DNA of 64,000 nucleotides, taken from NCBI RefSeq assembly GCF_030028105.1, contig NC_092374.1:171516432-171580431 (forward strand). The letters are read 5' to 3'. This stretch comes from Mobula birostris (lineage: Eukaryota). Positions 6,232 through 56,205 of the stretch are shown here, piece by piece. The notes beneath the pieces were generated by a model that was not told where the DNA came from, made no database searches, and was given only the letters and a program-made list of their open reading frames with translations. The stretch's first letter is position 1. Every line of letters begins with the position of its first letter. A program made the translations under genes and the position numbers.

Positions 6232-6378
6232 AACACACATAAAAATTGCTGGTGAACGCAGCAGGCCAGGCAGCATCTATAGGAAGAGGTACCTCCCATA
6301 GATGCTGCCTGGCCTGCTGTGTTCACCAGCAATTCTTATGTGCGTTGCTTGAAATTCCAGCATCTGCAGATCTCCTCG
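6232..6378. mobile_element. Penelope-like pLTR-derived fold-back insertion
   Basis: Near-perfect inverted arms (tgctggtgaacgcagcaggccaggcagcatctat) plus a 3' tail; 14-bp TSD tactacgttcaaga/tactacatgcaaga (6218-6231, 6379-6392). Confidence 0.85.
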
Positions 6379-15955: not shown

Positions 15956-16159
15956 ACTTTAGAGCAGTGCTTTGTCTTGTTCTCAATATCCAACGTGTAC
16001 ATTAAACCACAAGCAGGAAATATTTGTCCAGGCGAAGGGTTTCTACCTGAAATGTAGACTATCCAGTTCCCTCCATGGATGATTCCTGACCCACTGAGTC
16101 CCCCGCAGAGCTTTTAGTTGTGCTCCAGTCTCCAACGTCTGCAGTCTCCTGACATTCCA

Positions 16160-17584
16160 AGCAACACACACTGGAGGAACTCAGCAGGTCAGGCAGCATC
16201 TATGGAAAAGAGTACAGTCAACATTTCGGGCTGAAACCCTTCGGCAGGACTGGAGAAAAAAATGAGGAGTCAGAGCTGGAAGTCGGGGGGAGTGGAGGAA
16301 GAAACACAAGGTGATAGGTGAAACCGGGGGGGGGGGGGGGGAGTGGTGTAGTAGAGAGCTGGGAAGTTGATTGAAAGAGATACAGGGCTGGAGAAGGGGG
16401 AGTCTGATAGGAGAGGACAGAAGGCCTTGGAAGAAAGAGAAGGTGGAGGAGCACCAGAGGGAGGCAATGGCCAGGTAAGGAGATAAGGTGAGAGAGGGGA
16501 AAAGGGATGGGGAATAGAGAAGGGGGGCCATTACCGGAAGTTAGAGAAATCGATGTTCATGCCATCAGGTTGAAGGCTACCCAGACGAAATATAAGGTGT
16601 TGTTCATCCAACCTGAGTGTGGCCTCATCGTGGCAGTGGAGGAGGCTATGGATACTCATGGTGGAATGGGAATGGGAATGGGAAGTGGAATTATAATGGG
16701 TAGCCACTGGGAGATCCCGCTTTTCCTGGTGGATGGAGCATAGATGCTCAGCGAAGCGGTCTCCCAATCTACGTTGGGCCTCACCGATATATAGGAGGCC
16801 GCACCTGGAGCACGGATACAGTAGATGACCCCAACAGACTCACAAGTGAAGTGTCGCCTCACCTGGAAGGACTATTTGGGGCCCTGAATGGTAGTGAGGG
16901 AAGAGGTGTAGGGGCAGGTGTAGCACTTGTTCCACTTGCAAGGATAAGTGCCAGGAGGGAGATCAGTGGGGAAGGATGAATAGACAAGGGGAGTTGCGTA
17001 GGGAGCAATCCCTGCAGAAAGTAGGTAGCCTCCAACCTGATGGCATGAACATCAATTTCTCAAACATCTGGTAATGCTCCCTCTTTCTCTATTCCCCATC
17101 CCTTTCTCCCTCTTTCACCATATCTCCTTGTCTGCCCATCGCCTCCCTCTGGTGCTCCTCCCCCTTTTTCTTTCTTCCATGGCCTTCTGTCCCCTCCTAT
17201 CAGACTCCCCCTTCTCCAACACACATCAAAGTTGCTGGTGAACGCAGCAGGCCAGGCAGCATCTGTAGGAAGAGGTGCAGTCGACGTTTCGGGCCGAGAC
17301 CCTTCGTCAGGACTAACTTCTCCAGCCCTGTATCTCTTTCACAAATCAACTTCCTATCTCTTTACTTCACCCCTCCCCACCTCCCAGTCTCACCTATCAC
17401 CTTGTGTTTCTTCCTCTCCTCCCCCCACTCCTCGTCCTTTTTTTTCTCCAGTCCTGATGAAAGGTCTCGGCCCAAAGCGTCGACTGTATTCTTTTCCATT
17501 GATGCTCTGCCTGGTCTGCCGAGCTCCTCCAATATTTTGTGTGAGTGTTGCTTGGATTTCCAGCATCTGCAGATTTCCTTTTGT
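16160..17584 (-). mobile_element. Penelope-like element: GIY-YIG endonuclease C-terminus plus pLTR (16160-~17020, minus) and inverted pLTR (~17021-17584, plus)
   Basis: FTCESVGVIYCI, GDRFAEHL..LPVATHYNS..EQHLIFRLGSLQPDGMNIDF; 13-bp TSD tcctgacattcca/tcctgacgttcca (16147-16159, 17585-17597); hammerhead motif in each pLTR. Confidence 0.9.
17278..17315 (-). ncRNA. Minimal type I hammerhead ribozyme with intact core
   Basis: Minus strand: uaguc-CUGACGA-a-gggucucggccc-GAAA-c-GUC^gacug; stem I and stem II pair; stem III reduced to the palindrome ACGU. Confidence 0.8.
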
Positions 17585-18439
17585 TCCTGACGTTCCATGA
17601 AGTGTTTGAAAATACCACACATTTTGCTGTGAAGGATGAGATACTGAAGTAGTCCTGTCTTCTCTCTGTAAAAGTGGACAACTTTGCCCTGTGACCTTGA
17701 GCATCATTTGACCTCCAACCTACTGACTGCAGTAACACAGTTGATCTAGTCCTTGTTGTTGGCGGGAGAGAGCTGTGCGCAAATTGGCTGTCGTGGGACA
17801 GCAGCGAAGGCACGTCACGGGTATTTTGCTGGTTCTGGGACCCCCCCTTGACGTTGTCAAAGGCATTGTTGATACAGAATTTCGTGTATAACAACACAAG
17901 GCTGCTGCTGTACAAGCTACTAGCTGTAACCTTTGGGGACCATGTGACAGGAATAACAATCTGCAGCCAGCCCTGCTGCTTTATCACAAAGCTCTTTGCA
18001 TGAGTGTTAACCGTACAGAGTTCGTGCATTATTCTTACCACCACGTCATTACTCCCAGTCCTCTGGTTCCTCCCCCAGAACAAACGTGTATAGATTGGAC
18101 AGTTAATTGCCTGCTGTAATTTATTACCACTTTAGTTAAGTTGTAAAACAATCTATCATGGAAGAGTTTCAGGGCCACAGGAAAAGAGGCAGGCGAAAGC
18201 CATTACGGGCCAAATAGCTTCAATCTGTCATACAGTACTTCAGCACTGAAAACACACCCTTCAGCCCATCTCATTGGAGGAGGATATCATTTTAAGGAGG
18301 TTGGGAGAAGTTATGGGGGATGTCCGAGCTAGGTTTTTTACAGAGAGTGGTGGGTACATGGAACGCACTGCCAGAGCTGGTAGGAGAGGCAGATACACTA
18401 GGGCATTTCAGAAAATCTTACATAGGCACATGAATGATA

Positions 18440-19669: not shown

Positions 19670-20440
19670 TTCAAGATGTTCAAAGATCAAACTTCAAAGT
19701 AAACCTGGTATCGAAATACTTATATGTCACCATATACTACTTTGAGATTCATTTTCTCACGGGCATTTACGGTGCAAAGAAAAGAAATTCAGTAGAATTT
19801 AGAATACCAGCACCACAGTAGCGAGGCAGTTAGCGTAAAAGCATAGTAGCGTCCTGCCGAAGGGTTTCGGCCTGAAATGTCAACTGTGCTTTTCCATAGA
19901 TGCTGCCTGGCCTGCTGAGCTCCTCCAGCATTTTGTGTGTGCTGCTCGGATTCCCAGCATCTGCAGATTTTCTCTTTTGTAATGCTATTACAGCATGGGC
20001 ACTCTGGAATCCAGAGTTTAGATCTGGTGCTGTTCTGTATGGAGTCTCTGTACGTCCTCCCCGTGGAATGCCTGGGTTTGTTCCCTGTTTCCTCCACAGT
20101 CCAAAGGCGTACCGGATAGGTCAACTGGTCATGGTAAGTTGTCCTGTGATTAGGTTAGGGTTAATTGGGATTGTAGGGTTGTTGGGGCAGCAGGGCTTAA
20201 AGGGCGGGAAGGGCCTACAACGAGCTGAATCACTAAATAAATGAATAAATTTATGAAAAACTGTATTTAACAAAGTCTGAAAAGCATTCAATATGCAAAA
20301 GAGAACAAATCATGCAAATAATACATTTTTAAAAAGTAATGATTAATACTGAGTTGTAGAGTCCTTGAAAGTAAGCGTGGAATCAGTTCAGCATTGAGGT
20401 GAGTGAAGTTATTCATGCTGATTCAGGAGCTTGATGGTTG
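19670..20440 (-). mobile_element. Rex1 3' UTR containing a V-SINE (~19808-20250, +), which itself contains a PLE hammerhead insert (19851-19978, +)
   Basis: Similar to 100-480; SINE head and V-domain; gtc-ctgccga-agggtttcggcct-gaaa-tgtc. Confidence 0.8.
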
Positions 20441-26123: not shown

Positions 26124-26219
26124 AACCCTCGAAGGGTTTCAGCCCAAAACATCGACTGTACTTTTTCCATAGAGGCTGCCTGGCTTGCTGAGTTCCTCCA
26201 GTATTTTGTGTGTGTGTGT
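26124..26219 (+). mobile_element. 96-bp PLE hammerhead-region insert in CR1
   Basis: cgaagggtttcagcccaaaacatcgactg...gtgtgtgt; 9-bp TSD tgtcctcat (26115-26123, 26220-26228). Confidence 0.8.
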
Positions 26220-28329: not shown

Positions 28330-29057
28330 CACTCAGTGGCCACTCTATTAAGTACAGGAGGTACCTAATAAGCTGGCTACTGAGTGGATGTTCGCGGCCT
28401 TCTGCTGCAATAGCCCATCCACTTCAAAGTTTGACATGTTGGGTGCCGAGAGTGCTCTTCTCCACACTGCTGTTGTAACGCGTGGTTATTTGAGTTACTG
28501 TCTCCTTCCAGTCAGTTTGAATCAGTCTGGCCATTCCCCACTGACCTCTCTCATCAATAAGGCATTTTCGTCCACAGAACTGCCACTCACTAGAGGCTTT
28601 GGGGTTTTTTTGGCACTATTCTCTGTAAATTCTAGAGACTGCTGTTCGTGGAAATCCCATGAGATCAGCAGTTTCTGAGATACTCAAACCAGCCCATCTG
28701 GCACCAAGACACACACAATGCTGGAGGAACTCAGCAGGCAGCAGGACCGTCCTGCAGAAGGGTTTTGGCCTGAAATGTTGACTGTACTCTTTTCCCAGAT
28801 GCTCCTCCAACATTTTGTGTGTGTTGCTTGGATTTCCAGCATCCGCAGATTTTCTGTTGTCCACGTGGCTCCAACAATCATTCCACATCATTTACACTTC
28901 TTCCCCATTCTGCTGTTCGATCTGAACAACAGCTGAACCTCTTGACCATGCCTGCGTGCTTTTATGCATTCAGTTGCCGCTCTGAATGGCTGATTAGGTA
29001 TTTGCATTAATGAGCAGGTGCACAGGTGTACCTAATAAAGCAGCCACCATAAGTCTA
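28330..29057 (-). mobile_element. Tc1 non-autonomous element with a doubled TIR, containing a PLE insert (28708-28865)
   Basis: TIR cactcagtggccactctattaagtac; GARWAGLSISETADLMGF; PLE insert has TSD tggcaccaa/tggctccaa. Confidence 0.85.
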
Positions 29058-30403: not shown

Positions 30404-32607
30404 TGTAATGCCCTGGTTAAGATTTTCACTGCTATGCTGTAGGTATTTCATTTTAACAGTTATGTAAGAGCAGACTGCTCTCAGCTTGTTTGGGTTTGAG
30501 CTAAGATAAGAGGCTGGCTAATCAACTTAGGATTTGCTGTCAGCCAATCAGGATAGTGGAATTGGGAGAAGGTTCTGGAGAACACTGGGTTGAAGATCTT
30601 TGTTGGCGGGAGCTGGAAGGAGACAGGGAAAAAAAATGGCTGAGGATGCCGACCCTGTTGCACGTGTGCTTAGTGCAGATGAATGGCTTCAAGAAGGAAC
30701 AGCCAGTACTCCCATGACAGAACCATTAGTTTGAGATAGATTTCGAGCGACACTCTGAAGGTTCTGTGCTTTCATGCAGACCAAGGGTCCAGCACGTGAG
30801 TCACAGACAAGTTCAAGATGAGCTCTAACTTAAGTGCACACTTGACTGTTTAAGATTAATGGGCCTTTTTTGTTCCTTTCTTTCATTCTTTTAAAACTGT
30901 TTGCTTAAATTAACATTCTTAAATATACTTCTGTTTAATTATAAGACTATAAGACCATAAGATATAGGAGCAGAAGTAGGCCACTTGGCCCATTAGGTCT
31001 GCTCCGCCATTCAATCATGGGCTGATCCAATTCTTCCAGTCATCCCCACTCCCCTGCCTTCACTCCATTCCCTTTGATGCCCTGGCTAATCAAGAACTTA
31101 TCTACCTCTGCCTTAAATATACTCAATGACTTGGCCTCCACAGCCGCTCGTGGCAACAAATTCCGTAGATTTACCACCCTCTGATGAAAGTAATTTCTCC
31201 GCATCTCAGTTCTAAATGGATGTTCTTCAATCATGAAATCATGCCCTCTTGTCCTAGAATCCCCTACCAGGGGAAACAACGTTGCCATATCTAATCTGTT
31301 CAGGCATTTTAACATTCGGAATGTTTCTATAAGATCCCCTCTCATTCTCCTGAACTCCAGGGAGTACAGCACAAGAGCTGCCAGACATTCCTCATACAGT
31401 AACCCTTTCATTCCTTGAATCATTCTTGTGAATCTTCTCGGAACCCTCTCCAATGTCAGTATATCCTTTCTAAAATAAGGAACCCAAAACTGCACACGAT
31501 ATTCCAAGTGTGGTCTCACGAGTGCCTTATAGAGCCTCAACATCACATCCCTGCTCTTATATTTTATACCTCTAGAAATGAATGCCAACATTGCATTCAC
31601 CTTCTTCACAACCGACTCAACCTGGAGGTTAATCTTTAGGGTATCTTGCACAAGGACTCCCAAGTCCCTTTGCATCTCTGCATTTTGAATTCTCTCCCCA
31701 TCTAAATAATAGTCTTCCCATTTATTTCTTCCACCAAAATGACCATACACTTTCCAACATTGTATTTCATTTGCCACTTCTTTGTCCATTCCCCTAAACT
31801 ATCTAAGTCTCTCTGCAGGCTCTCTGTTTCCTCAACACTACCTGCTCCTTCGCCTATCTTTGTATCATCAGCAAATTTAGCCACAAATCCGTTAATACCG
31901 TAATCCAAATCATTGACATACATCGTAAAAAGCAGCGATCCCAACCCCGACCCCTGTGGAACTCCACTGGTAACCGGCAGCCAGCCAGAATAGGATCCCT
32001 TTATTCCCAGTCTCTGTTTTCTGTCGACCAGCTGATGCTCCACCCATGCTAGTAACTTCTCTGTAATTCCATGGGCTCTTATCTTGCTAAGCAGCTTTAT
32101 GTGTGGCACCTTGTCAAAGGCCTTCTGAAAATCCAAGTACACCATGACTACTACATCTCCTTTGTCTACCCTGCTTGTAATTTCCTCAAAGAATTGTAGT
32201 AGCTTTGTCAGGCAGGATTTTCCTTTCAGGAAACCTTGCTGGCTTTGGTCTACCTTGTCATGTGCCTCCACGTACTCCGTAATCTCATCCCTAACAATCG
32301 ATTCCAACAACTTTCCAACCACTGATATCAGGCTAACAGGTCTATAGTTTCCTTTCTGCTGCCTCCCACCCTTCTTAAATTGTATGTAGTTATTTCCTGC
32401 TGGGGGCAGTAAATCACACAGCATTCACACAAACCAGGGTTTGCGTAGGCAAGGCATCCCAACGTCATGGATTTGGCAGGACCAAAGTTATACACACCTG
32501 AGACATACGAAGCTGGAGAAAAGTGAGTTTGTTGCCATGGAATTCAGTGGCTATTAGTACAGAGCTAATGAGCTGGTTTTCCACAGATGCCCAGTATGAG
32601 GGTTTCA
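30404..32607. mobile_element. Solo LTR (~765 bp net) inserted in an old CR1 and interrupted by a younger CR1
   Basis: tgtaatgccct...agggtttca inverted termini; 4-bp TSD gagg (30400-30403, 32608-32611); host CR1 rejoins as atagagg|tatagaaaattatgaggg. Confidence 0.75.
30941..32380 (-). mobile_element. CR1 LINE RT region, frameshifted
   Basis: ORFs 31702..32424 and 31040..31789: GNYRPVSL, YLDFQKAFDKVPH, GVPQGS, KFADDTK. Confidence 0.95.
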
Positions 32608-32669
32608 GAGGTATAGAAAAATTATGAGGGTTAGTGACAGGGTGAATGCATGGAGGTTTTTCCCCTCAG

Positions 32670-33603
32670 AGAAACATAGAAAACCTACAGCACAGTACAG
32701 GCCCTTCGGCCCATGAAGTTGTGCCAAACATGTCCCTACCTTGGAAATTTCTAGGCTTACGTATAGCCCTCTATTTTTCTAAGCTCCATGTACCTATCCA
32801 AAAGACTCTTAAAAGACCCTATCGTATCCACCTCCACCACCGTTGCCAGCAGCCCATTCCATGCACTCACCGCTCTCTAAGTAAAAAACTTACCCCTGAC
32901 ATCTCCTCTGTACCTACTCCCCAGCACCTTAAACCTGTGTCCTCTTGTGGCAACCATTTCAGCCCTGGGAAAAAGCCTCTGACTATCCACATGATCAATG
33001 CCTCTCATCATCTTATACACCTCCATCAGGTCTCCTCTCATCCTCTGTCGCTCCGAGGAGAAAAGGCCGAGTTCACTCAACCTGTTCTCATAAGGCATGC
33101 TCCCTAATCCAGGAAACATCCTTGTAAATCTCCTCTGCACCCTTTCTAGGGCTTCCACATCCTTCCTGTAGCGAGGCGACCAGAACTGAGCACAGTACTC
33201 CAAGTGGGGTCTGACCAGGGTCCTATATAGCTGCAACATTACCTCTCGGCTCCTAAACTCAATTCCACAATTGATGAAGGCCAATACACCGTAAGCCTTC
33301 TTAACTACAGAGTCAACCTGCGCAGTTGCTTTGAGTGTCCTATGGACTCAGACACCAAGATCCTCCACACTGCCAAGAGTCTTACCATTAATACTATATT
33401 CTGCCATCATATTTGACCTACCAAAATGAACCACTTCACACTTATCTGGGTTGAACTCCATCTGCCACTTCTCAGCCCAGTTTTGCATCCTATTAATGTC
33501 CCACTGTAACCTCTGACAGCCCTCCACACTATCCACAACACCCCTAACCTTTGTGTCATCGGCAAACTTATTAACCCATCCCTTCACTTCCTCATCCAGG
33601 CCA
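32670..33603 (-). mobile_element. CR1 LINE 3' part (same subfamily as 35730-36931 and 38085-40823)
   Basis: KFADDTK, LVRPHLEYCAQFWSP, tail agaaacatagaaaacc. Confidence 0.95.
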
Positions 33604-34915
33604 TCTTGAGATGAGAAATGGAGATCATAGTTAAGGATGAAGGTGAAATATTTAAGGGGAGCCTCCTCGCTCAGATGGTGCTGTGAGTGTGGAACAAGTT
33701 GCCAGGAGAGGTCATGGATGTGGGTTCAATAGTAATATTTAAGAGAACTTTGGATAGTTACATGGATGAGGGGTGTATGGATGACTATTCTCCTGGTGCA
33801 AGTAGATGGGAATAGGCAGAAACAAGGCTAGCATGGACTAGATGGGACAAAAGGCCTGTTTCTATGCTGTAGTTCTCTGTGACCCTGACTCCTGCTCACT
33901 TTATGGTGTTCTTCCTTCTTGGTTCCTCATCAAACACCACCCCGAACAAAGAGACGTGCAAGACAGATATTTGGTAATGGTCATCTGGTGCTTCCATCTT
34001 ATTTCCTTAGGCAATCCCTTAGGATCAGAGATCAGAGATGACCTGCTTCCACTTCTATTGTGTGGGATTGGAGGTGGTTGATGAGGCCGCTAGGGGACAC
34101 ACAGAAATGGGTGAGCAATCTGAGAGGTGACCCACTCCATCTTACTCTGGCCTTCCACATGCTCCCAACACATGGACTCATGGCCCTTGATCCACTTGGT
34201 CAAGAAGACTTTGAACACATACGTGAATCTTTTCCTCTGTCATCCCAATATTTCTTCCCTGAAATAGTGTCTGGGGAATTGGTATTGATACTGGTTTTGA
34301 TTAATGTTTTCACTTGGAGCAAGATACAGTGAAAAGTTTGTATTGCATCTTGTTTATACAGATTAAACCATCACCCATTTCATTGAGCTAGGATTAGGTA
34401 AAACAAGACATACCGGTGGGAGGTTAGTTGGTCATTGTAAATTGTCCTGTGAGTAGACTAGGGTTAAATTGGGGATTGTTGGGTGTTGTGGCTTGAATGG
34501 CCGGAAGGGCCTATTGTGCATTGTATTTCAATCAATCAATCAATCAGTCAATAAATAGGTAGATAGATAGATAAAATGCAAAATAATATGTAAAAGCTAC
34601 CAATAAAACGTGCAGTGCAGGTAAACGATAAAATGCAAAGTCATAATGGGGTAGATTGTGAAGCCAAGAGTCCATCGTATCATACACGAGGTCCATTCAG
34701 GAGTCTGATAACAGTGGGATAGAATTTATCCTTGAGCCTGCTGCAATGTGCTTTCAGATTTTCATATTCTCTGCCTAATAGGGGAGGAGAGAAGAGTGAA
34801 TGATGAGAGCTTTTCCACCCATTATTAACCCTCCCTAAACTCGGTTCATTGACTTTACTGTCCAAAGAAAGGTTGCTGCTCAGTCACTCAGTTCCGGTGA
34901 CCAAAATAGCTAACT

Positions 34916-35564: not shown

Positions 35565-35729
35565 CTAACTATCCAAACACTCAGTACCAATGACCAAGGG
35601 ACACTTAACTACCCAGCACTCGGTATTAGTAACCAAGGGACATTTATCTACCCAGCAATCAGTACCAGTGACCAAAAGACATTGAACTACCCAGCACTCG
35701 GTACTGATGACCAAAAGGACACTTAACTA

Positions 35730-36931: not shown

Positions 36932-38084
36932 TAACTACCCAGCACTCGGTACTAGTAACCAAGGGACACTTAACTACTCAACAATCGGTACTAGTGACCA
37001 AAAGACATTTAACTACCCAGCAATCGGTATCAGTGACTGAGGGATACGTTACTAACCAAACACTTGGTACCAATATCCAAAGACTACTGAAGTACCCAAA
37101 TACTCCCAAATACTTAGTACCAGTGACTGAAGGAACCTTAACCACCTAACTCTCAACACCAATGATCGAGGGACACTTAACTCCCCGACACTAACAGTAA
37201 TTGCGGGACACTTTGCTCACAGCACTGAGTCAGCACACCAGGGTGTGTTCACCACATCTACATCCAGTGTTATTTTTAGCTGGCTTGTTCTTGTTGTGCC
37301 ACTGACTGATGATAATTGGCTCCCACTTGAGGAACATGTCGGTGGCGAGTGTGCAGCCTAACCTGCACAAATTGGCATCCTGCCGCGGCGAAAAACTGGG
37401 ATAGGTATCACAGGGACTAAAATCCCGATCACTGCTTCCTAACGAGGAGGAGGCCTCACATTTTTGTAGCACCCTTCACAGCCTCAGGACAGCCCATGGG
37501 AACAGAGGTGCTCGGTGAATCTTGCAATACCGGTCTTCCTCTCCTGCCTCGCTTTGTAAGAGGAGGTGAGACCAGCCCAGAGTCACACAGGATGTACACA
37601 GCATCTTCAGCCCATCGACTGTGTGCTGGCCACCCTTATACACCAGTCCTATCAGGACTTCTCAGCTCCAGCTCAGGGTTAATTAAAAGTGGCCAAATTG
37701 ACCTACCAAACTTCAGTAACCACCATGGATGAGACCCCAGGCCGGGATCAGACTGAGAAAATAAAAATGTGCGCCTGAGCAAAATGACATTGAAGTGATA
37801 CTCTGAGGTGATGAACAAGGACAAGGGGGAAGAACCTCCCACTATCAACTAACTGACAGCCCAACCTAACCTTACAGACACTGTAGTGACATTCAACATG
37901 CAATGGCCGATATGTAAAGGGTTTCAGTAACAAGGATAGCAGACTAGTGAGTGCCGCCATTCTGGTCAGTACAGTTACCGCGAACATCACGTGTACAGTT
38001 ACCATGGTGAGTACAGTCTCCCTGTGAACACCACATGATGTGGTGGCCAGTACAGAAACTTGGATGGTACAGGGGTAGGTACGG

Positions 38085-40823
38085 CTACATCAAGTGCCGG
38101 GCTTTAGATGTTTCAGAAAGGACAGGGAGGGAGGCAAAAGAGATGGGGGCATGGCACTGTTGATCAGAGATAGTGTCACGGCTGCAGAAAAGGAAGAAGT
38201 CATGGAGGGATTGTCTATGGAGTCTCTGTGGGTGGAAGTTAGAAAAGGAAGGGGTCAATAACTCTACTGGGTGTTTTTTATAGACCACCCAATAGTAACG
38301 GGGACACCACGGAGCAGATAGGGAGACAGATTCTGGAAAGGTGTAATAATAACAGAGTTGTCGTGGTGGGAGATTTTAATTTCCCAAATATCGATTGGCA
38401 TGTCCCTGGAGCGAGGGCTTTAGATGGGGTGGAGTTTGTTAGGTGTGTTCAGAAAGGTTTCTTGACACAATATGTAGATATGCCTACAAGAGGAGAGGCT
38501 GAACTTGATCTGGTATTGGGAAATGAACTTGATCAGGTGTCAGGTCTCTCAGTGGGAGAGCATTTTGGGGATAGTGATCACAATTCTATCTCCTTACCAT
38601 AGCATTGGAAAGGCATAGGAACAGACAGGTTAGGGAAACATTTAATTGGAGTAAGTGGAAATATGAGGCTATCAGGCAGGAACTTGGAAGCATAAATTGG
38701 AAACAGATGTTCTCAGGGAAACGTACAGAAGAAATATGGCAAATGTTCAGGGGATATTTGCATGCGGTTCTGCGTAGGTACATTCCAATGAGACAGGGAA
38801 AGAATGGTAGGGTACAGGAACCATGTTGTACAAAGGTTGTTGTAAATCTAGTCAAGAAGGAAAGTAGAGCTTACGAAAGGTTAAAAAAAACTAGGTAATG
38901 ATAGAAATCTAGAAGATTTTAAGGCTAACAGGAAGGAGCTTAAGAATAAAATTAGGAAAGCCATAAGGGGCCATGAGAAGGCCTTGGCAAGCAGGATTAA
39001 GGAAAACCCCAAGGCATTCTACAAGTATGCTAAGAGCAAGAGGATAAGACGTGAGAGAATAGGACCAATCAAGTGTGACAGTGGGAAAGTGTGTATGGAA
39101 CCGGAGGAGATAGCAGAGGTACTTAATGAATACTTTGCTTCAGTTTTCGCTATGGAAAAGGAGCTTGGCCATTGTAGGGATGACTTGCAGCAGACTGAAA
39201 AGCTTGAGCATGTAGATATTAAGGAAGAGGATATGCTGGAGCTTTTGGAAAGTATCAAGTTGGATAAGTCACCGGGACAGGATGGGATGTACCCCAGGCT
39301 ACTATGGGAAGCGAGGGAGGAGATTGCTGAGCCTCTGGAGATGACCTTTGCATCAACAATGGAGACAGGAGAGGTTCCGGAGGATTGGAAGGTTGCGGAT
39401 GTTGTTCCTTTATTCAAGAAAGGGAGTAGAGATAGCCCAGGAAATTATAGACCAGTGAGTCTTACTTCAGTGGTTGGTAAGTTGATGGAGAAGATCCTGA
39501 AAGACAAGATTTATGAACATTTGGAAAGGCAAAATATGATTAGGAATAGTCAGCATGGCTTTGTCAAAGACAGGTCATGCCTTATGAGCCTGATTGAATT
39601 TTTTGAGGATGTGACTAAACACATTGATGAAGGTAGAGCAGTAGATGTAGTGTATATGGATTTTAGCAAGGCATTTGATAAGGTACCCCATACAAGGTTT
39701 ATTGAGAAAGTAAGGAGGCATAGAATCCAAGGGGACATTGCTTTGTAGATCCAGCATTGGCTTGCCCACAGAAAGCAAAGGGTGGTTGTAGATGGGTCAT
39801 ATTCTGCATGGAGGTCAGTGACCAGTGGTGTGCCTCAGGGATCCGTTCTGGGACCCCTACTCTTCGTGATTTTTATAAATGACATGGATGAAGAAGTGGA
39901 GGGATGGTTAGTAAATTTGCTGATGACATAAAGGTTGGGGGTGTTGTGGACAGTGTGGAGGGCTGTCAGAGGTTACAGCGGGACATTGATAGGATGCAAA
40001 ACTGGGCTGAGAAGTAGCAGGTGGAGTTCAACACAGATAAGTGTGAGGTGGTTCATTTTGGTAGGTCAAATATGATGGCAGAATATAGTATTAATGGTAA
40101 GACTCTTGGCAGTGTGGAGGACCAGCGGGGGTCTTGGTGTCTGAGTCCATAGGACACTCAAAACTGCTGCGCAGGTTGACTCTGTGGTTAAGAAAGCATA
40201 TGGTGCATTGGCCTTCATCAATCATGGGACTGAGTTTAAGAGCCAAGAGGTAATGTTGCAGCTATATAGGACCCTGGTCAGACACCACTTGGAGTACTGT
40301 GCTCATTTCTGGTCACTTCACTACAGGAAGGATGTGGAAGCCATAGAAAGGGTGCAGAGGAGATTTACAAGGATGTTGCCTGGATTGGGGAGCATGCCTT
40401 ATGAGAATAGGTTGAGTGAGCTCGCCTTTACTCCTTGGAGTGACGAAGATTGAGAGGTGACCTGATAGAGGTGTATAAGATGATGAGAGGAAACGATTGT
40501 GTGGATAGTCAGAGGCTTTTTCCCAGGGCTGAAATGGCTAGCATGAGAGGGTATAGTTTGAAGGTGCTTGGAAGCAGGTACAGAGGAGATGTCAGGAGTA
40601 AGTTTTTTTTCGCAGAGAGTGGTGAGTGCGTGGAATGGGCTGCCGGCAACAGTGGTGGAGGCGGATACGATAGGGTCTTTTAAGAGACTCCTGGACAGGT
40701 ACATGGAGCTTAGAAGAATAGAGGGCTATGGGTAAGCCTAGTAAATCTAAGGTAAGGACATGTTCAGCACAGTATTGTGGGCCGAAGGGCCTGTATTGTG
40801 CTGTAGGTTTTCTATGTTTCTAT
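38085..40823 (+). mobile_element. CR1 LINE ORF2 (APE endonuclease plus RT), multiply disrupted
   Basis: VGDFNFPNIDW, GDSDHNSI, KSPGQDGMYPRLL, GNYRPVSLTS, DFSKAFDKVPH; 3' tail. Confidence 0.95.
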
Positions 40824-44986: not shown

Positions 44987-45277
44987 GTAAATTATTTGCA
45001 ACATGTCCCTTCGGGCTATGCTTCCCCGCAAGTTTATGCTGATTTTTTGATAGAGTATCCAATATGTCCCACTCCCCTGTTCCCTCCTCACAGCCATGGA
45101 TTTACAGCATGGAAACAGGCCCTTCTGCCCATCTGGTCCATGCTGAACAAGATACCCCATCCAAGCTAATCCCATTTTCCAGTGTTTGGCACATAACTTT
45201 TTAAATGTTTCCTACCTATTTACCTATCCAGCTGTCCTTGAAAAGTTATTATTCTACCTGTCTCCACACTTCCTCTG

Positions 45278-47347
45278 GAATAAATCAAGGAAGGTAGTGC
45301 ACCCGTGGCTGACAAGAGAAATTAGGGATAGTATCAATTCCAAAGAAGAAGCATACAAATTAGCCAGAAAAAGTGGCTCACCTGAGGACTGGGAGAAATT
45401 CAGAGTTCAGCAGAGGAGGACAAAGGGCTTAATTAGGAAGGGGAAAAAAGATTATGAGAGAAAACTGGCAGGGAACATAAAAACGGACTGTAAAAGCTTT
45501 TATAGATATGTAAAAAGGAAAAGACTGGTAAAGACAAATGTAGGTCCCCTGCAGACAGAAACAGGTGAATTGATTATGGGGAGCAAGGACATGGCAGACC
45601 AACTGAATAATTACTTTGGTTCTGTCTTCACTAAGGAGGACATGAATAATCTTCCAGAAATAGTAGGGGACAGAGGGTCCAGTGAGATGGAGGAACTGAG
45701 CGAAATACATGTTAGTAGGGAAGTGGTGTTAGGTAAATTGAAGGGATTGAAGGCAGATAAATCCCCAGGGCCAGATGGTCTGCATCCCAGAGTGCTTAAG
45801 GAAGTAGCCCAAGAAATAGTGGATGCATTAGTGATAATTTTTCAAAATTCGTTAGATTCTGGACTAGTTCCTGAGGATTAGAGGGTGGCTAATGTAACTC
45901 CACTTTTTAAAAAAGGAGGAAGAGAGAAACCGGGGAATTATAGACCGGTTAGCCTAACGTCGGTGGTGGGGAAACTGCTGGAGTCAGTTATCAAGGATGT
46001 GATAACAGCACATTTGGAAAGCGGTGAAATGATTGGACAAAGTCAGCATGGATTTGTGAAAGGAAAATCACGTCTGACGAATCTCATAGAATTTTTTGAG
46101 GATGTAACTAGTAGAGTGGATAGGGGAGAACCAGTGGATGTGGTATATTTGGACTTTCAAAAGGCTTTTGACAAGGTCCCACACAGGAGATTAGTGTGCA
46201 AACTTAAAGCACACGGTATTGGGGGTAAGGTATTGGTGTGGGTGGAGAATTGGTTAGCAGACAGGAAGCAAAGAGTGGGAATAAACGGGACCTTTTCAGA
46301 ATGGCAGGTGGTGACTAGTGGGGTACCGCAAGGCTCAGTGCTGGGACCCCAGTTGTTTACAAAATATATTAATGACTTGGATGAGGGAATTAAATGCAGC
46401 ATCTCCAAGTTTGCGGATGACACGAAGCTGGGTGGCAGTGTTAGCTGTGAGGAGGATGCTAAGAGGATGCAGGGTGACTTGGATAGGTTGGGTGAGTGGG
46501 CAAGTTCATGGCAGATGCAATTTAATGTGGATAAATGTGAAGTTATCCACTTTGGTGGCAAAAATAGGAAAACAGATTATTATCTGAATGGTGGCCGATT
46601 AGGAAAAGGGGAGGTGCAACGAGACCTGGGTGTCATTATACACCAGTCATTGAAAGTGGGCATGCAGGTACAGCAGGCGGTGAAAAAGGCGAATGGTATG
46701 CTGGCATTTATAGCGAGAGGATTCGAGTACAGGAGCAGGGAGGTACTACTGCAGTTGTACAAGGCTTTGGTGAGACCACACCTGGAGTATTGTGTGCAGT
46801 TTTGGTCCCCTAATCTGAGGAAAGACATCCTTGCCATAGAGGGAGTACAAAGAAGGTTCACCAGATTGATTCCTGGGATGGCAGGACTTTCATATGAAGA
46901 GAGACTGGATGAACTGGGCTTGTACTCGTTGGAATTTAGAAGATTGAGGGGGGATCTGATTGAAACGGATAAGATCCTAAAGGGATTGGACAGGCTAGAT
47001 GCAGGAAGATTATTCCCGATGTTGGGGAAGTCCAGAACAAGGGGCCACAGTTTGAGGATAGAGGGGAAGCCTTTTAGGACCGAGATTAGGAAAAACTTCT
47101 TCACACAGAGAGTGGTGAATCTGTGGAATTCTCTGCCACAGGAAACAGTTGAGGCCAGTTCATTGGCTATATCTAAGAGGGAGTTAGATATGGCCCTTGT
47201 GGCTACGGGGGTCAGGGGGTATAGAGGGAGGGCTGGGGCGGGGTTCTGAGTTGGATGATCAGCCATGATCATAATGAATGGCGGTGCAGGCTCGAAGGGC
47301 CGAATGGCCTACTCCTGCACCTATTTTCTATGTTTCTATGTTTCTAT
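45278..47347 (+). mobile_element. Young 5'-truncated CR1 LINE; ORF2 intact except for one nonsense codon
   Basis: ORFs 45186..45881 and 45885..47249 are in frame, separated by TAG 45879-45881 where PEDW is expected; full RT motifs; (tttctatg)n tail. Confidence 0.97.
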
Positions 47348-49507: not shown

Positions 49508-49621
49508 CTCCATTATTCAGGTAATCAGATTCTGATGAGTTATGACCTTCAGGCCTATTAATTTCTCCAATTTCAGATTTTTTCCAACTAATACCAATTT
49601 TTTTGACTCCTCACTCACTCA

Positions 49622-50412
49622 AGAACACAAGAAATTCTGCAGATGCTGGAAATCCAGAGTAACAATGGCAAAATGTTGGAAGAACCCAGCAGGTCAGGCA
49701 GCGTCGATATAAAGGAATAACCAGACAATGTTTCTGGCGGAGACCCTTCATCAGGACTCCACACCTATTTTATTTACACCAGACCTGTTGTCCTTCACGA
49801 TTAACCAAAATAATCAGTGGGTCTTCATCCAAGAAGACTGGAGCAAAATCTTTGATTTCTCTGCCGTATTCTTAATCCCTATCACAACACACAAAATGCT
49901 GGAGGAACTCAGTAAGTCAGGTATCATCTGCAGAGGAGACTGGACAGTTGATGTTTTGGGTCGAGACCCTTCATGAGGGCTAGAAAGAAGGAAGACAGCC
50001 AATGTGAAAAGGTTAGCCGGGTGTGGCACAAGAACCAGTGGGTGATAGGTGGATCCAGGTGAGGGGGAGACCATAAAACCATAGGGCATAGGAGCAGAAT
50101 TAGGCCATTTGGCCCATTGAGTCTTTTCTGTCATTTCGCCACGGCTTATTTGTTGATGGGAGAATGGGAATGATGTCAGAAGCCAGGAGGTGAGGGGTGG
50201 AAGTGATAAAGGAATAAAGAAGCTAAAATCTGATAGCAAGGACAGTGGACTATGGAGGTGAGGAGAAGAATTGGAAGGAGAGAGGTATGGGTGATGGGCA
50301 GATCAAACTGGTGGGGTAGGGAAAGAGATGGAGTGATGTGCCTGGTGGGATAAGGGATAAAATGGGGGGACAGAGCAGAGTGGTTACTAGAGAAATCAAT
50401 GTTCACGCCATC
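49622..50412 (-). mobile_element. Two PLE pLTR copies (49622-49758; 49885-50412) with degenerate hammerheads
   Basis: Minus strand gtc-ctgatga-agggtctccgcca-gaaa; ctcatga-agggtctcgaccc-aaaa; ORF end MNIDFS. Confidence 0.8.
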
Positions 50413-51033
50413 TACTTATTCCTCATACACTTCTGTTTCAGTTGAGGGAGATTCCAAAACCACGTGATACATTGCAACAAGAAAGTAGCCACTAAATCAA
50501 TCCAGGTTGTTTTCCATGGGTAGCTGGGAGAATGTGGAATGCACTGTCTGCAGGAGAGTTCATGGTGAGGAACATTTAACAGCAAGCTGGATATACCCAT
50601 GGAATAGAGGGAGCAGCTGATGGAGAAGGGTGGTAAGAAGTTAGGTGCATGACAGGAATTTCAGTACGAAGCAGAGGTGTAGAATGGCCCATTTCTACTT
50701 AATACTGTTGGAAACTATGAGTCTACTTCAGCAAACACACTTGATTGTTTTATCTAGAGGCCAGGGTCCTGCATATATTCAGCTCATTCGTCCTCATAAG
50801 CAATTCTTTTAAGCAAGGCCACAAATTCCTCTCAAATCAGAATCTAATCATTTTGAAGGTTCCATAGAGTGAGATCAGCAATTGGCTGACTGATTGATTC
50901 ACTGATAAATTGCTTAAGGGAGGCACCATTTACTTCTTCTGGCAACTGACAAAAAGCTGACTTGTGCACTACAAACTATCTTAGCCACTCTAACATTGCA
51001 AAGGAGGTGAGCAATGTCCTTTCTAGCAGGAGA

Positions 51034-55995: not shown

Positions 55996-56205
55996 AACAC
56001 ACAGTAAATGCTGGAGGAACTCAGCAGACCAAGCAGCACCTATGGAAAAAAGTGCAGTCAACATTTCGGGCTGAGACCCTTTGGCAGGACTCTGTCCCAA
56101 ACCATCGACTGTACTTTTTTCATTAGATGCTGCCTGCTGAGTTCCTTCAGCATTTTATGTGTGTTGCTTAGATTTCCAGTATCTGCAGATTTTCTTTTCT
56201 TTGTG
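55996..56205. mobile_element. PLE pLTR fold-back insertion with hammerhead motif
   Basis: Inverted arms; perfect 13-bp TSD aatgcatttaact (55983-55995, 56206-56218). Confidence 0.9.

Follow-up and report, generated by a model that had tools for sequence, protein, structure and literature searches.

A 98-nt hammerhead-plus-tail insert in a Mobula birostris Penelope-like element and a probable preferred 5′ end among its relatives

Here we analyse a 64,000-nt stretch of Mobula birostris DNA (the window), in which a 98-nt insert carrying a minimal hammerhead ribozyme interrupts the remains of an older Penelope-like element (PLE). The locus raises the question of whether so small a unit is mobile in its own right or is the end of something larger, and of how its 5′ boundary came to lie at the edge of the ribozyme. 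A preliminary description had taken it for a recent insertion mobilised by PLE machinery, either retrozyme-like or an extreme 5′ truncation. We conclude that the insert is very probably the hammerhead-plus-tail end module of a Neptune-like PLE, a by-product of such an element that forms no separate family.

The insert, its target site and its hammerhead

The insert lies on the minus strand at 17219..17316, as defined from sequence and alignment, and comprises a minimal hammerhead followed by a short PLE tail. A repeat search places the same 8 bp, CTTCTCCA, on the plus strand at both 17211..17218 and 17317..17324; the two copies are identical, the repeat does not extend leftward, and, given the local composition, an exact 8-mer would match at a fixed position by chance with a probability of 7.9e-5. 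The last 2 nt of the left copy also fit the family tail, a microhomology at the 3′ junction of the element (loose ends before 17217), and the first 2 nt of the right copy also fit the upstream pseudo-LTR of the subfamily, a microhomology at the 5′ junction. Because two letters at each end of the duplication match the family continuation (loose ends 17217 and 17318), the insert measures 98-102 nt and the pure-target duplication 4-8 bp. Taking out the insert and one copy of the duplication leaves a site whose alignment to 16485-16285 passes through the join, at 86% over 205 columns. The joined form (17210 directly followed by 17317, skipping 106 letters, with 8 letters fitting both sides) occurs in 16, 16, 12 and 1 contigs of four public runs, contigs that represent paralogous copies of the host family and are not identified as the orthologous site.

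Six CpGs are kept in the insert, as against 0-4 in the other nine copies scored and a CpG observed/expected ratio of 0.29 for the window, and the strict core pattern survives in 2 of the 10 module copies scored; the insert is therefore young. Its unique right flank shows 0 differences in 168 nt in run X1 and 4 in 189 nt in run X5, and among the pieces listed for these two runs no contig spans the insertion site. The 98-nt insert with its 8-bp duplication, the restoration of the host pseudo-LTR on removal and the intact CpGs are thus as the preliminary description had them, and recent insertion by PLE machinery is supported, as is the second of its two options, an extremely 5′-shortened PLE end. 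Its label “ribozyme-only” is too narrow, as 59 nt (17219..17277, minus strand) are PLE tail, ending in a UG-rich run and delimited by alignment and by loose ends at 17217 and 17585.

The hammerhead (17278..17315, minus strand) was read from the sequence and agrees with the earlier reading of its anatomy; it is of minimal type I and fits the min-HHR consensus in the text of PMC4209133. Stem I pairs UAGUC (17315-17311) with GACUG (17282-17278) and includes a terminal U-G pair. It is followed by CUGACGA (17310-17304), an extra A (17303), a 4-bp stem II with a tetraloop (17302-17291), GAAA (17290-17287) and an ACGU without a loop, and the predicted cut falls at 17283/17282. The core (CUGANGA, GAAA and NUH) is present together with stems I and II, as are the min-HHR traits of an extra nucleotide between 9 and 10.1, a palindromic 15.2-16.2 and the lack of a helix III loop; an Rfam scan gave 0 matches at the gathering score.

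Folding energy alone does not exceed that of shuffled sequences (z +0.98). The best fold of the monomer is a single hairpin with its base at the 5′ edge, in which the core pairs with the ACGUC segment, and the ~38-nt hammerhead hairpin is of modest stability (z -1.32, with 34 of 300 shuffles equally stable; -4.2 kcal/mol in DNA form). For a tandem dimer the double-hammerhead fold is predicted at -35.0 kcal/mol, 18.8 above the best fold at -53.8 kcal/mol, in a model that omits tertiary contacts. The nearest hammerhead motif on the same strand is ~1 kb away and has a mutated core. According to the text of PMC4209133, min-HHR monomers do not cleave and dimers cleave at a low level. On this modelling the ribozyme is most likely silent in place, because it would need a partner copy and because the monomer hairpin would sequester its core. 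The core GACG can pair with CGUC (17283-17286 with 17305-17308), giving an inactive hairpin as the best fold; older copies have GAUG and CAUC at these positions, which could be covariation or simply CpG decay.

The host element and the module family

The arm of the host that holds the insert (17024..17590, plus strand; alignment and translation) is an older, 5′-truncated PLE oriented opposite to the insert, and contains the last codons of an ORF, a pyrimidine-rich pseudo-LTR, a decayed hammerhead (17450-17486) and a long tail. Its inverted partner (16161..17025, minus strand; alignment, translation and tblastn) carries a decayed hammerhead (16251-16216), a pseudo-LTR and the broken 3′ end of the ORF, in which 16525-17025 encodes a Cys linker and a GIY-YIG-like region. 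The ORF remnant P0001 (102 residues) is 83% and 78% identical to proteins of Mobula and Hypanus, the best two of 14 matches. By eye, these relatives have an RT-type YIDD motif and a Cys linker; they match the Pfam GIY-YIG family below cutoff (E 4.6e-4 and 2e-3), and the P0001 fragment itself matches 0 Pfam families. A CX2-5CxxC linker between RT and GIY-YIG was recognised by eye in the host translation and in the relatives, and since the text of PMC8557442 gives this linker as a mark of the Neptune clade, the host would be Neptune-like.

A tblastn search of the window with the PLE relatives gave matches at 16525-17095 only and found no PLE RT. Three RVT_1 ORFs among 11 scanned were considered as PLE sequence and rejected, as they have no tblastn match with the PLE relatives and belong to other retroelements; the RVT_1 remnants at 31040-33725, 38885-39748 and 45147-47249 are probably LINEs. 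In both host arms a donor-like GTAATG overlaps the ORF stop (16570-16578, minus strand; 17068-17076, plus strand), and in the minus arm a branch-point-like CTGAC, a pyrimidine tract and an AG precede stem I, so that a possible intron of about 285 nt would extend from the end of the ORF to the ribozyme.

The insert and the host subfamily are 79-84% alike. A module located in the pseudo-LTR downstream of an RT/GIY-YIG ORF is seen for the related host subfamily; the link of the insert's own subfamily to PLEs is its pseudo-LTR continuation, without an ORF seen. Among the loose ends listed for run X15, 41 contigs run past 17318 with a common sequence (agreement 0.64), which in the sense of the ribozyme is an upstream pyrimidine tract ending in a CAG that adjoins the first base of the insert; the subfamily therefore has a longer pseudo-LTR. 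Runs X15 and X17 are presumed RNA runs, and the depth profile over the insert mirrors that of the DNA runs.

A profile search of the window found 20 hammerhead/tail modules, compared with 0 across five shuffles. The 3′ end of the insert is the shorter of two family ends, other copies being ~35-45 nt longer. Some part of the 801-nt stretch compared is fitted at 80% likeness by 7,467 to 125,229 contigs per run, and pattern scans of metagenome, viral and genome contig sets returned 0 loci.

Several other arrangements were observed in the window. At 6233-6375 a tail-outward inverted pair of the young subfamily of the insert (95% over 58 nt) is joined by a short palindrome downstream of the cut site, has an 8-bp duplication with 1 mismatch and lacks the hammerhead core. 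A module copy inside a LINE-like 3′ end (26124-26137, with a 9-bp duplication) opens with 6 bp of its own stem II sequence folded back, which points to the cDNA end having snapped back. An old read-through PLE end at 49885-50420 is split by ~90 nt of another repeat and has a second module of the same strand 130 nt away. Two copies of a tandem repeat with a 39-bp period (35566-35729 and 36932-37081) are ~1.4 kb apart.

The 5′ ends of module copies

The preliminary description had asked whether 5′ ends are scattered along the pseudo-LTR, as simple truncation would have it, or mark a discrete unit, and the outcome is mixed. Among the 20 copies, 11 begin inside the module at scattered positions (9-57), whereas six of the nine that reach stem I stop within ~4 nt of its 5′ edge; the other three read through into the pyrimidine-rich pseudo-LTR. 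A preferred 5′ end exists, and it does not by itself prove a self-propagating unit.

Besides the insert, the copies that start at stem I include a second short copy at 19851..19978 (plus strand), which interrupts another repeat, and a third at 49615..49758 (minus strand), whose 10-bp duplication has 1 mismatch and overlaps stem I. Two further edges belong to the longer arms of head-to-head inverted pairs, at 28709..28863 (9-bp duplication with 1 mismatch, interrupting a repeat) and 55997..56203 (15-bp duplication with 1 mismatch), and the last to an old copy at 16026..16140 (plus strand), whose junction has no confirming duplication. The two arms of the 28709-28863 pair seem to terminate on identical stem I letters, so that a short palindrome forms where they join; in the shorter arm, a stretch has been lost internally through a 4-nt microhomology. 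At 19837-19850 a filler of ~13 nt separates the interrupted repeat from stem I. The six edges vary by up to 3 nt, the copies come from different subfamilies, and their upstream flanks share at most 7 of 15 letters. In the contigs, at least two further inverted junctions lie at 17313 (run X17, among the rows listed). Loose ends at 17314 agree at 0.39 (566 contigs, X1) and 0.46, among the loose ends listed, where true tail ends agree at 0.41-0.43 and family continuations at 0.63-0.78. This low agreement resembles that of true ends; it could equally be a mix of the pseudo-LTRs of several subfamilies, and the loose-end consensus is purine-rich, as such a mix would be. In searches of the open-access literature (text without figures), no account of a clustering of 5′ ends at helix I was found.

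We prefer to read the insert as a dead-end by-product left by a Neptune-like, endonuclease-positive PLE. From what a Poseidon PLE does in vitro, we infer that the PLE protein would bind RNA around the hammerhead and tail, that its GIY-YIG domain would nick genomic DNA and that reverse transcription would begin on uncleaved RNA from either of two internal sites in the tail. As the sequence of the insert shows, the cDNA went past the predicted cut site and took in the hammerhead in its entirety, so that its template was uncleaved or re-ligated. The cDNA would have ended 1-2 nt past stem I where the template RNA itself ended, either at its start site or after nuclease trimming up to a protein-bound hairpin, and so be a run-off copy of the 5′-proximal module of the transcript, comparable to strong-stop DNA. 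Joining, as read from the junctions, proceeded through the 2-nt microhomology and left the 8-bp duplication. We advance the full chain, including run-off at an RNA 5′ end by the ribozyme edge, as tentative, its chances falling somewhat short of even.

Internal initiation at two tail sites, extension of both target strands, uncleaved RNA as the main substrate and shorter products from 5′-truncated templates have all been reported (PMC11167929). Extension of both strands also explains why inverted pairs with outward-facing tails occur in the window. Contigs are of a kind that cannot show RNA 5′ ends, and the contig comparison lists no position at which molecules start or stop in numbers. The initiator consensus is YYANWYY. 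An initiator-like match to it lies at stem I in two of the three read-through copies and in the insert, the third read-through copy being without one, and is weak evidence at a frequency of 10.8 per kb. Against run-off counts the D. virilis Penelope element, in which transcription starts 46 nt before a 75-nt intron (text of PMC2377424) whose end maps to helix I (text of PMC4209133), placing the start ~120 nt upstream of helix I.

A broader proposal, which we hold still more loosely, is that chondrichthyan Neptune-like PLEs make a defined run-off cDNA that begins at the 5′-proximal initiation site of the tail and stops at an RNA 5′ end by the upstream edge of the hammerhead. This strong-stop-like intermediate would normally jump templates in building pseudo-LTRs and would often integrate alone, leaving very many hammerhead-headed units of 100-140 bp that record the RNA 5′ end.

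Four alternatives to run-off were weighed. The RT may have fallen off at the base of the ~38-nt hairpin or at the pyrimidine tract, with AG or AGTC microhomology fixing the junction, which we consider unlikely. The monomer hairpin is indeed based at the 5′ edge, a pyrimidine tract lies directly upstream in all three read-through copies, and microhomology amounts to 2 nt at the insert and 4 nt at 49758; the copy at 19851, however, has filler and no microhomology, and the hairpin is modest by comparison with shuffles. Polymerases usually stop on entering a structure and not after leaving it, whereas here the stop would come after exit from the hairpin. Microhomology joins are otherwise known for PLEs, according to the text of PMC3846280.

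Slightly less probable again is ordinary random 5′ truncation, with the clustering due to chance or to a sharp drop in conservation upstream of stem I. Heavy 5′ truncation is normal for PLEs (texts of PMC8557442 and PMC4209133), and the 11 scattered ends speak for it. We compared the edge with a constant-hazard null in a test that was post hoc and small, on a profile that itself begins at stem I and that misses very short copies, which lowers the null hazard: a 5-nt window is expected to hold 0.62 of 9 ends and holds 6 (P 7.8e-6), and P per copy is 0.005 at 17 nt and 0.054 at 30 nt, the widest window thus agreeing with random truncation while those of 5-17 nt argue against it. Scored by event and not by copy (14 events), 6 of 8 give P 2e-4 at 17 nt. 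Also against it, the six flanks are not pyrimidine-rich (pyrimidine share 0.30-0.43, versus 0.83-0.93 in the read-through copies), and for five of the six edges the event is delimited by a duplication or by a repeat that it interrupts.

That short masters produce transcripts of their own which the PLE protein copies again, as an independent non-autonomous unit of SINE or retrozyme kind, strikes us as improbable. The unit size recurs, the module probably holds cis signals (PMC11167929 finds the first 172 nt of the PAc ORF sufficient), and animal retrozymes derive from pseudo-LTRs and are often monomers, as described in the text of bioRxiv 10.64898/2026.07.22.740005. Yet no tandem array occurs in the window (none of the 12 tandem-repeat rows for the 64 kb is of the module), the edge copies come from different subfamilies with no common upstream sequence, a longer form of the insert's subfamily exists, and the unit does not have cleavage sites as its boundaries, which would be expected of a cleavage product or a monomer derived from a circle. 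Such an origin, as cleavage product or circle monomer, was rejected, since the cut site (model position 33) is the start of 0 of the 20 copies and the nearest starts are at 30 and 37.

Least credible is that the edge is a 3′ splice site, produced by spliced RNA or by a stop at a splice complex: a tract and AG adjoin stem I in all three read-through copies, GTAATG lies at the ORF stop in both host arms, the insert begins exactly after the tract and CAG of its subfamily and the D. virilis Penelope intron ends at helix I (text of PMC4209133), but the entire pseudo-LTR is pyrimidine-rich, the AG is also needed for stem I pairing, no donor-to-acceptor joint is present among the 15 of 1153 joints listed, PLE copies usually retain introns (texts of PMC8557442 and PMC2377424), and the limited sharing among the upstream flanks of the six copies led us to reject a common first exon.

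Significance and comparison with known systems

The insert alone matters little: Cervera and De la Pena had already described single minimal hammerheads from truncated PLEs in 2014. The preferred 5′ end weighs more, and may mark the start of the template RNA. How PLEs build their pseudo-LTRs and what role their hammerheads play are given as open questions in the texts of PMC8557442 and PMC11167929. A genome-wide peak of 5′ ends at the ribozyme edge with none at the cut site, if true, would show uncleaved RNA to be the template in vivo, would define a testable RNA 5′ end or replication intermediate, and would offer a way for retrozymes to be seeded by pseudo-LTR pieces of a fixed size.

Compared with the min-HHR motifs of metazoan PLE pseudo-LTRs, as the text of PMC4209133 presents them, the hammerhead is likewise of type I without a helix III loop, with a palindromic 15.2-16.2, an unpaired nucleotide between 9 and 10.1, a G10.1-C11.1 pair and a helix I of 4-5 bp. 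Its stem II has 4 bp, in contrast to 7-8 bp in Schistosoma families. As the extra A and the loop-less stem III are hallmarks of PLE hammerheads in that account, the motif is of an already published kind. The same text counts min-HHR motifs in the thousands per genome, most of them, like the one here, single and probably left by truncated PLEs, and it mentions neither cartilaginous fish nor a preferred 5′ end at helix I.

Truncated endonuclease-positive PLEs (Neptune and Poseidon), in so far as they are covered in the texts of PMC8557442, PMC3846280 and PMC11167929, share with the copies in the window two 3′ ends ~35-45 nt apart, duplications of 8-15 bp, head-to-head inverted pairs, 5′ microhomology and insertion into another PLE in the opposite orientation. 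The insert has the traits of this class in its 3′ end at one of the two tail sites and its short duplication. For PLEs, the text of PMC3846280 reports duplications of 8-9 bp, solo pseudo-LTRs and palindromic inverted junctions, and puts forward the idea of an antisense template. The difference from these accounts is that here the 5′ ends pile up at the upstream edge of the ribozyme.

Non-LTR retrozymes, as characterised in the texts of PMC7229834 and bioRxiv 10.64898/2026.07.22.740005, are similarly non-coding and derived from pseudo-LTRs, carry type I hammerheads and have duplications of more than 4 bp, and dispersed monomers are known. They are defined by tandem repeats with at least two hammerheads and by circular RNA, with mostly canonical motifs in units of 150-450 bp, whereas the insert is a 98-nt monomer with a minimal motif, from a subfamily that runs on into the pseudo-LTR of a PLE. 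Among the 15 of 1153 joints listed (contigs of the presumed RNA runs), none links the module head to tail. In place of the closed, ORF-independent unit of a retrozyme we found an upstream continuation in 41 contigs and a cut site that is spanned, and the retrozyme-like option of the preliminary description is not upheld. The insert is instead the kind of pseudo-LTR piece from which retrozymes, on these published accounts, are thought to arise.
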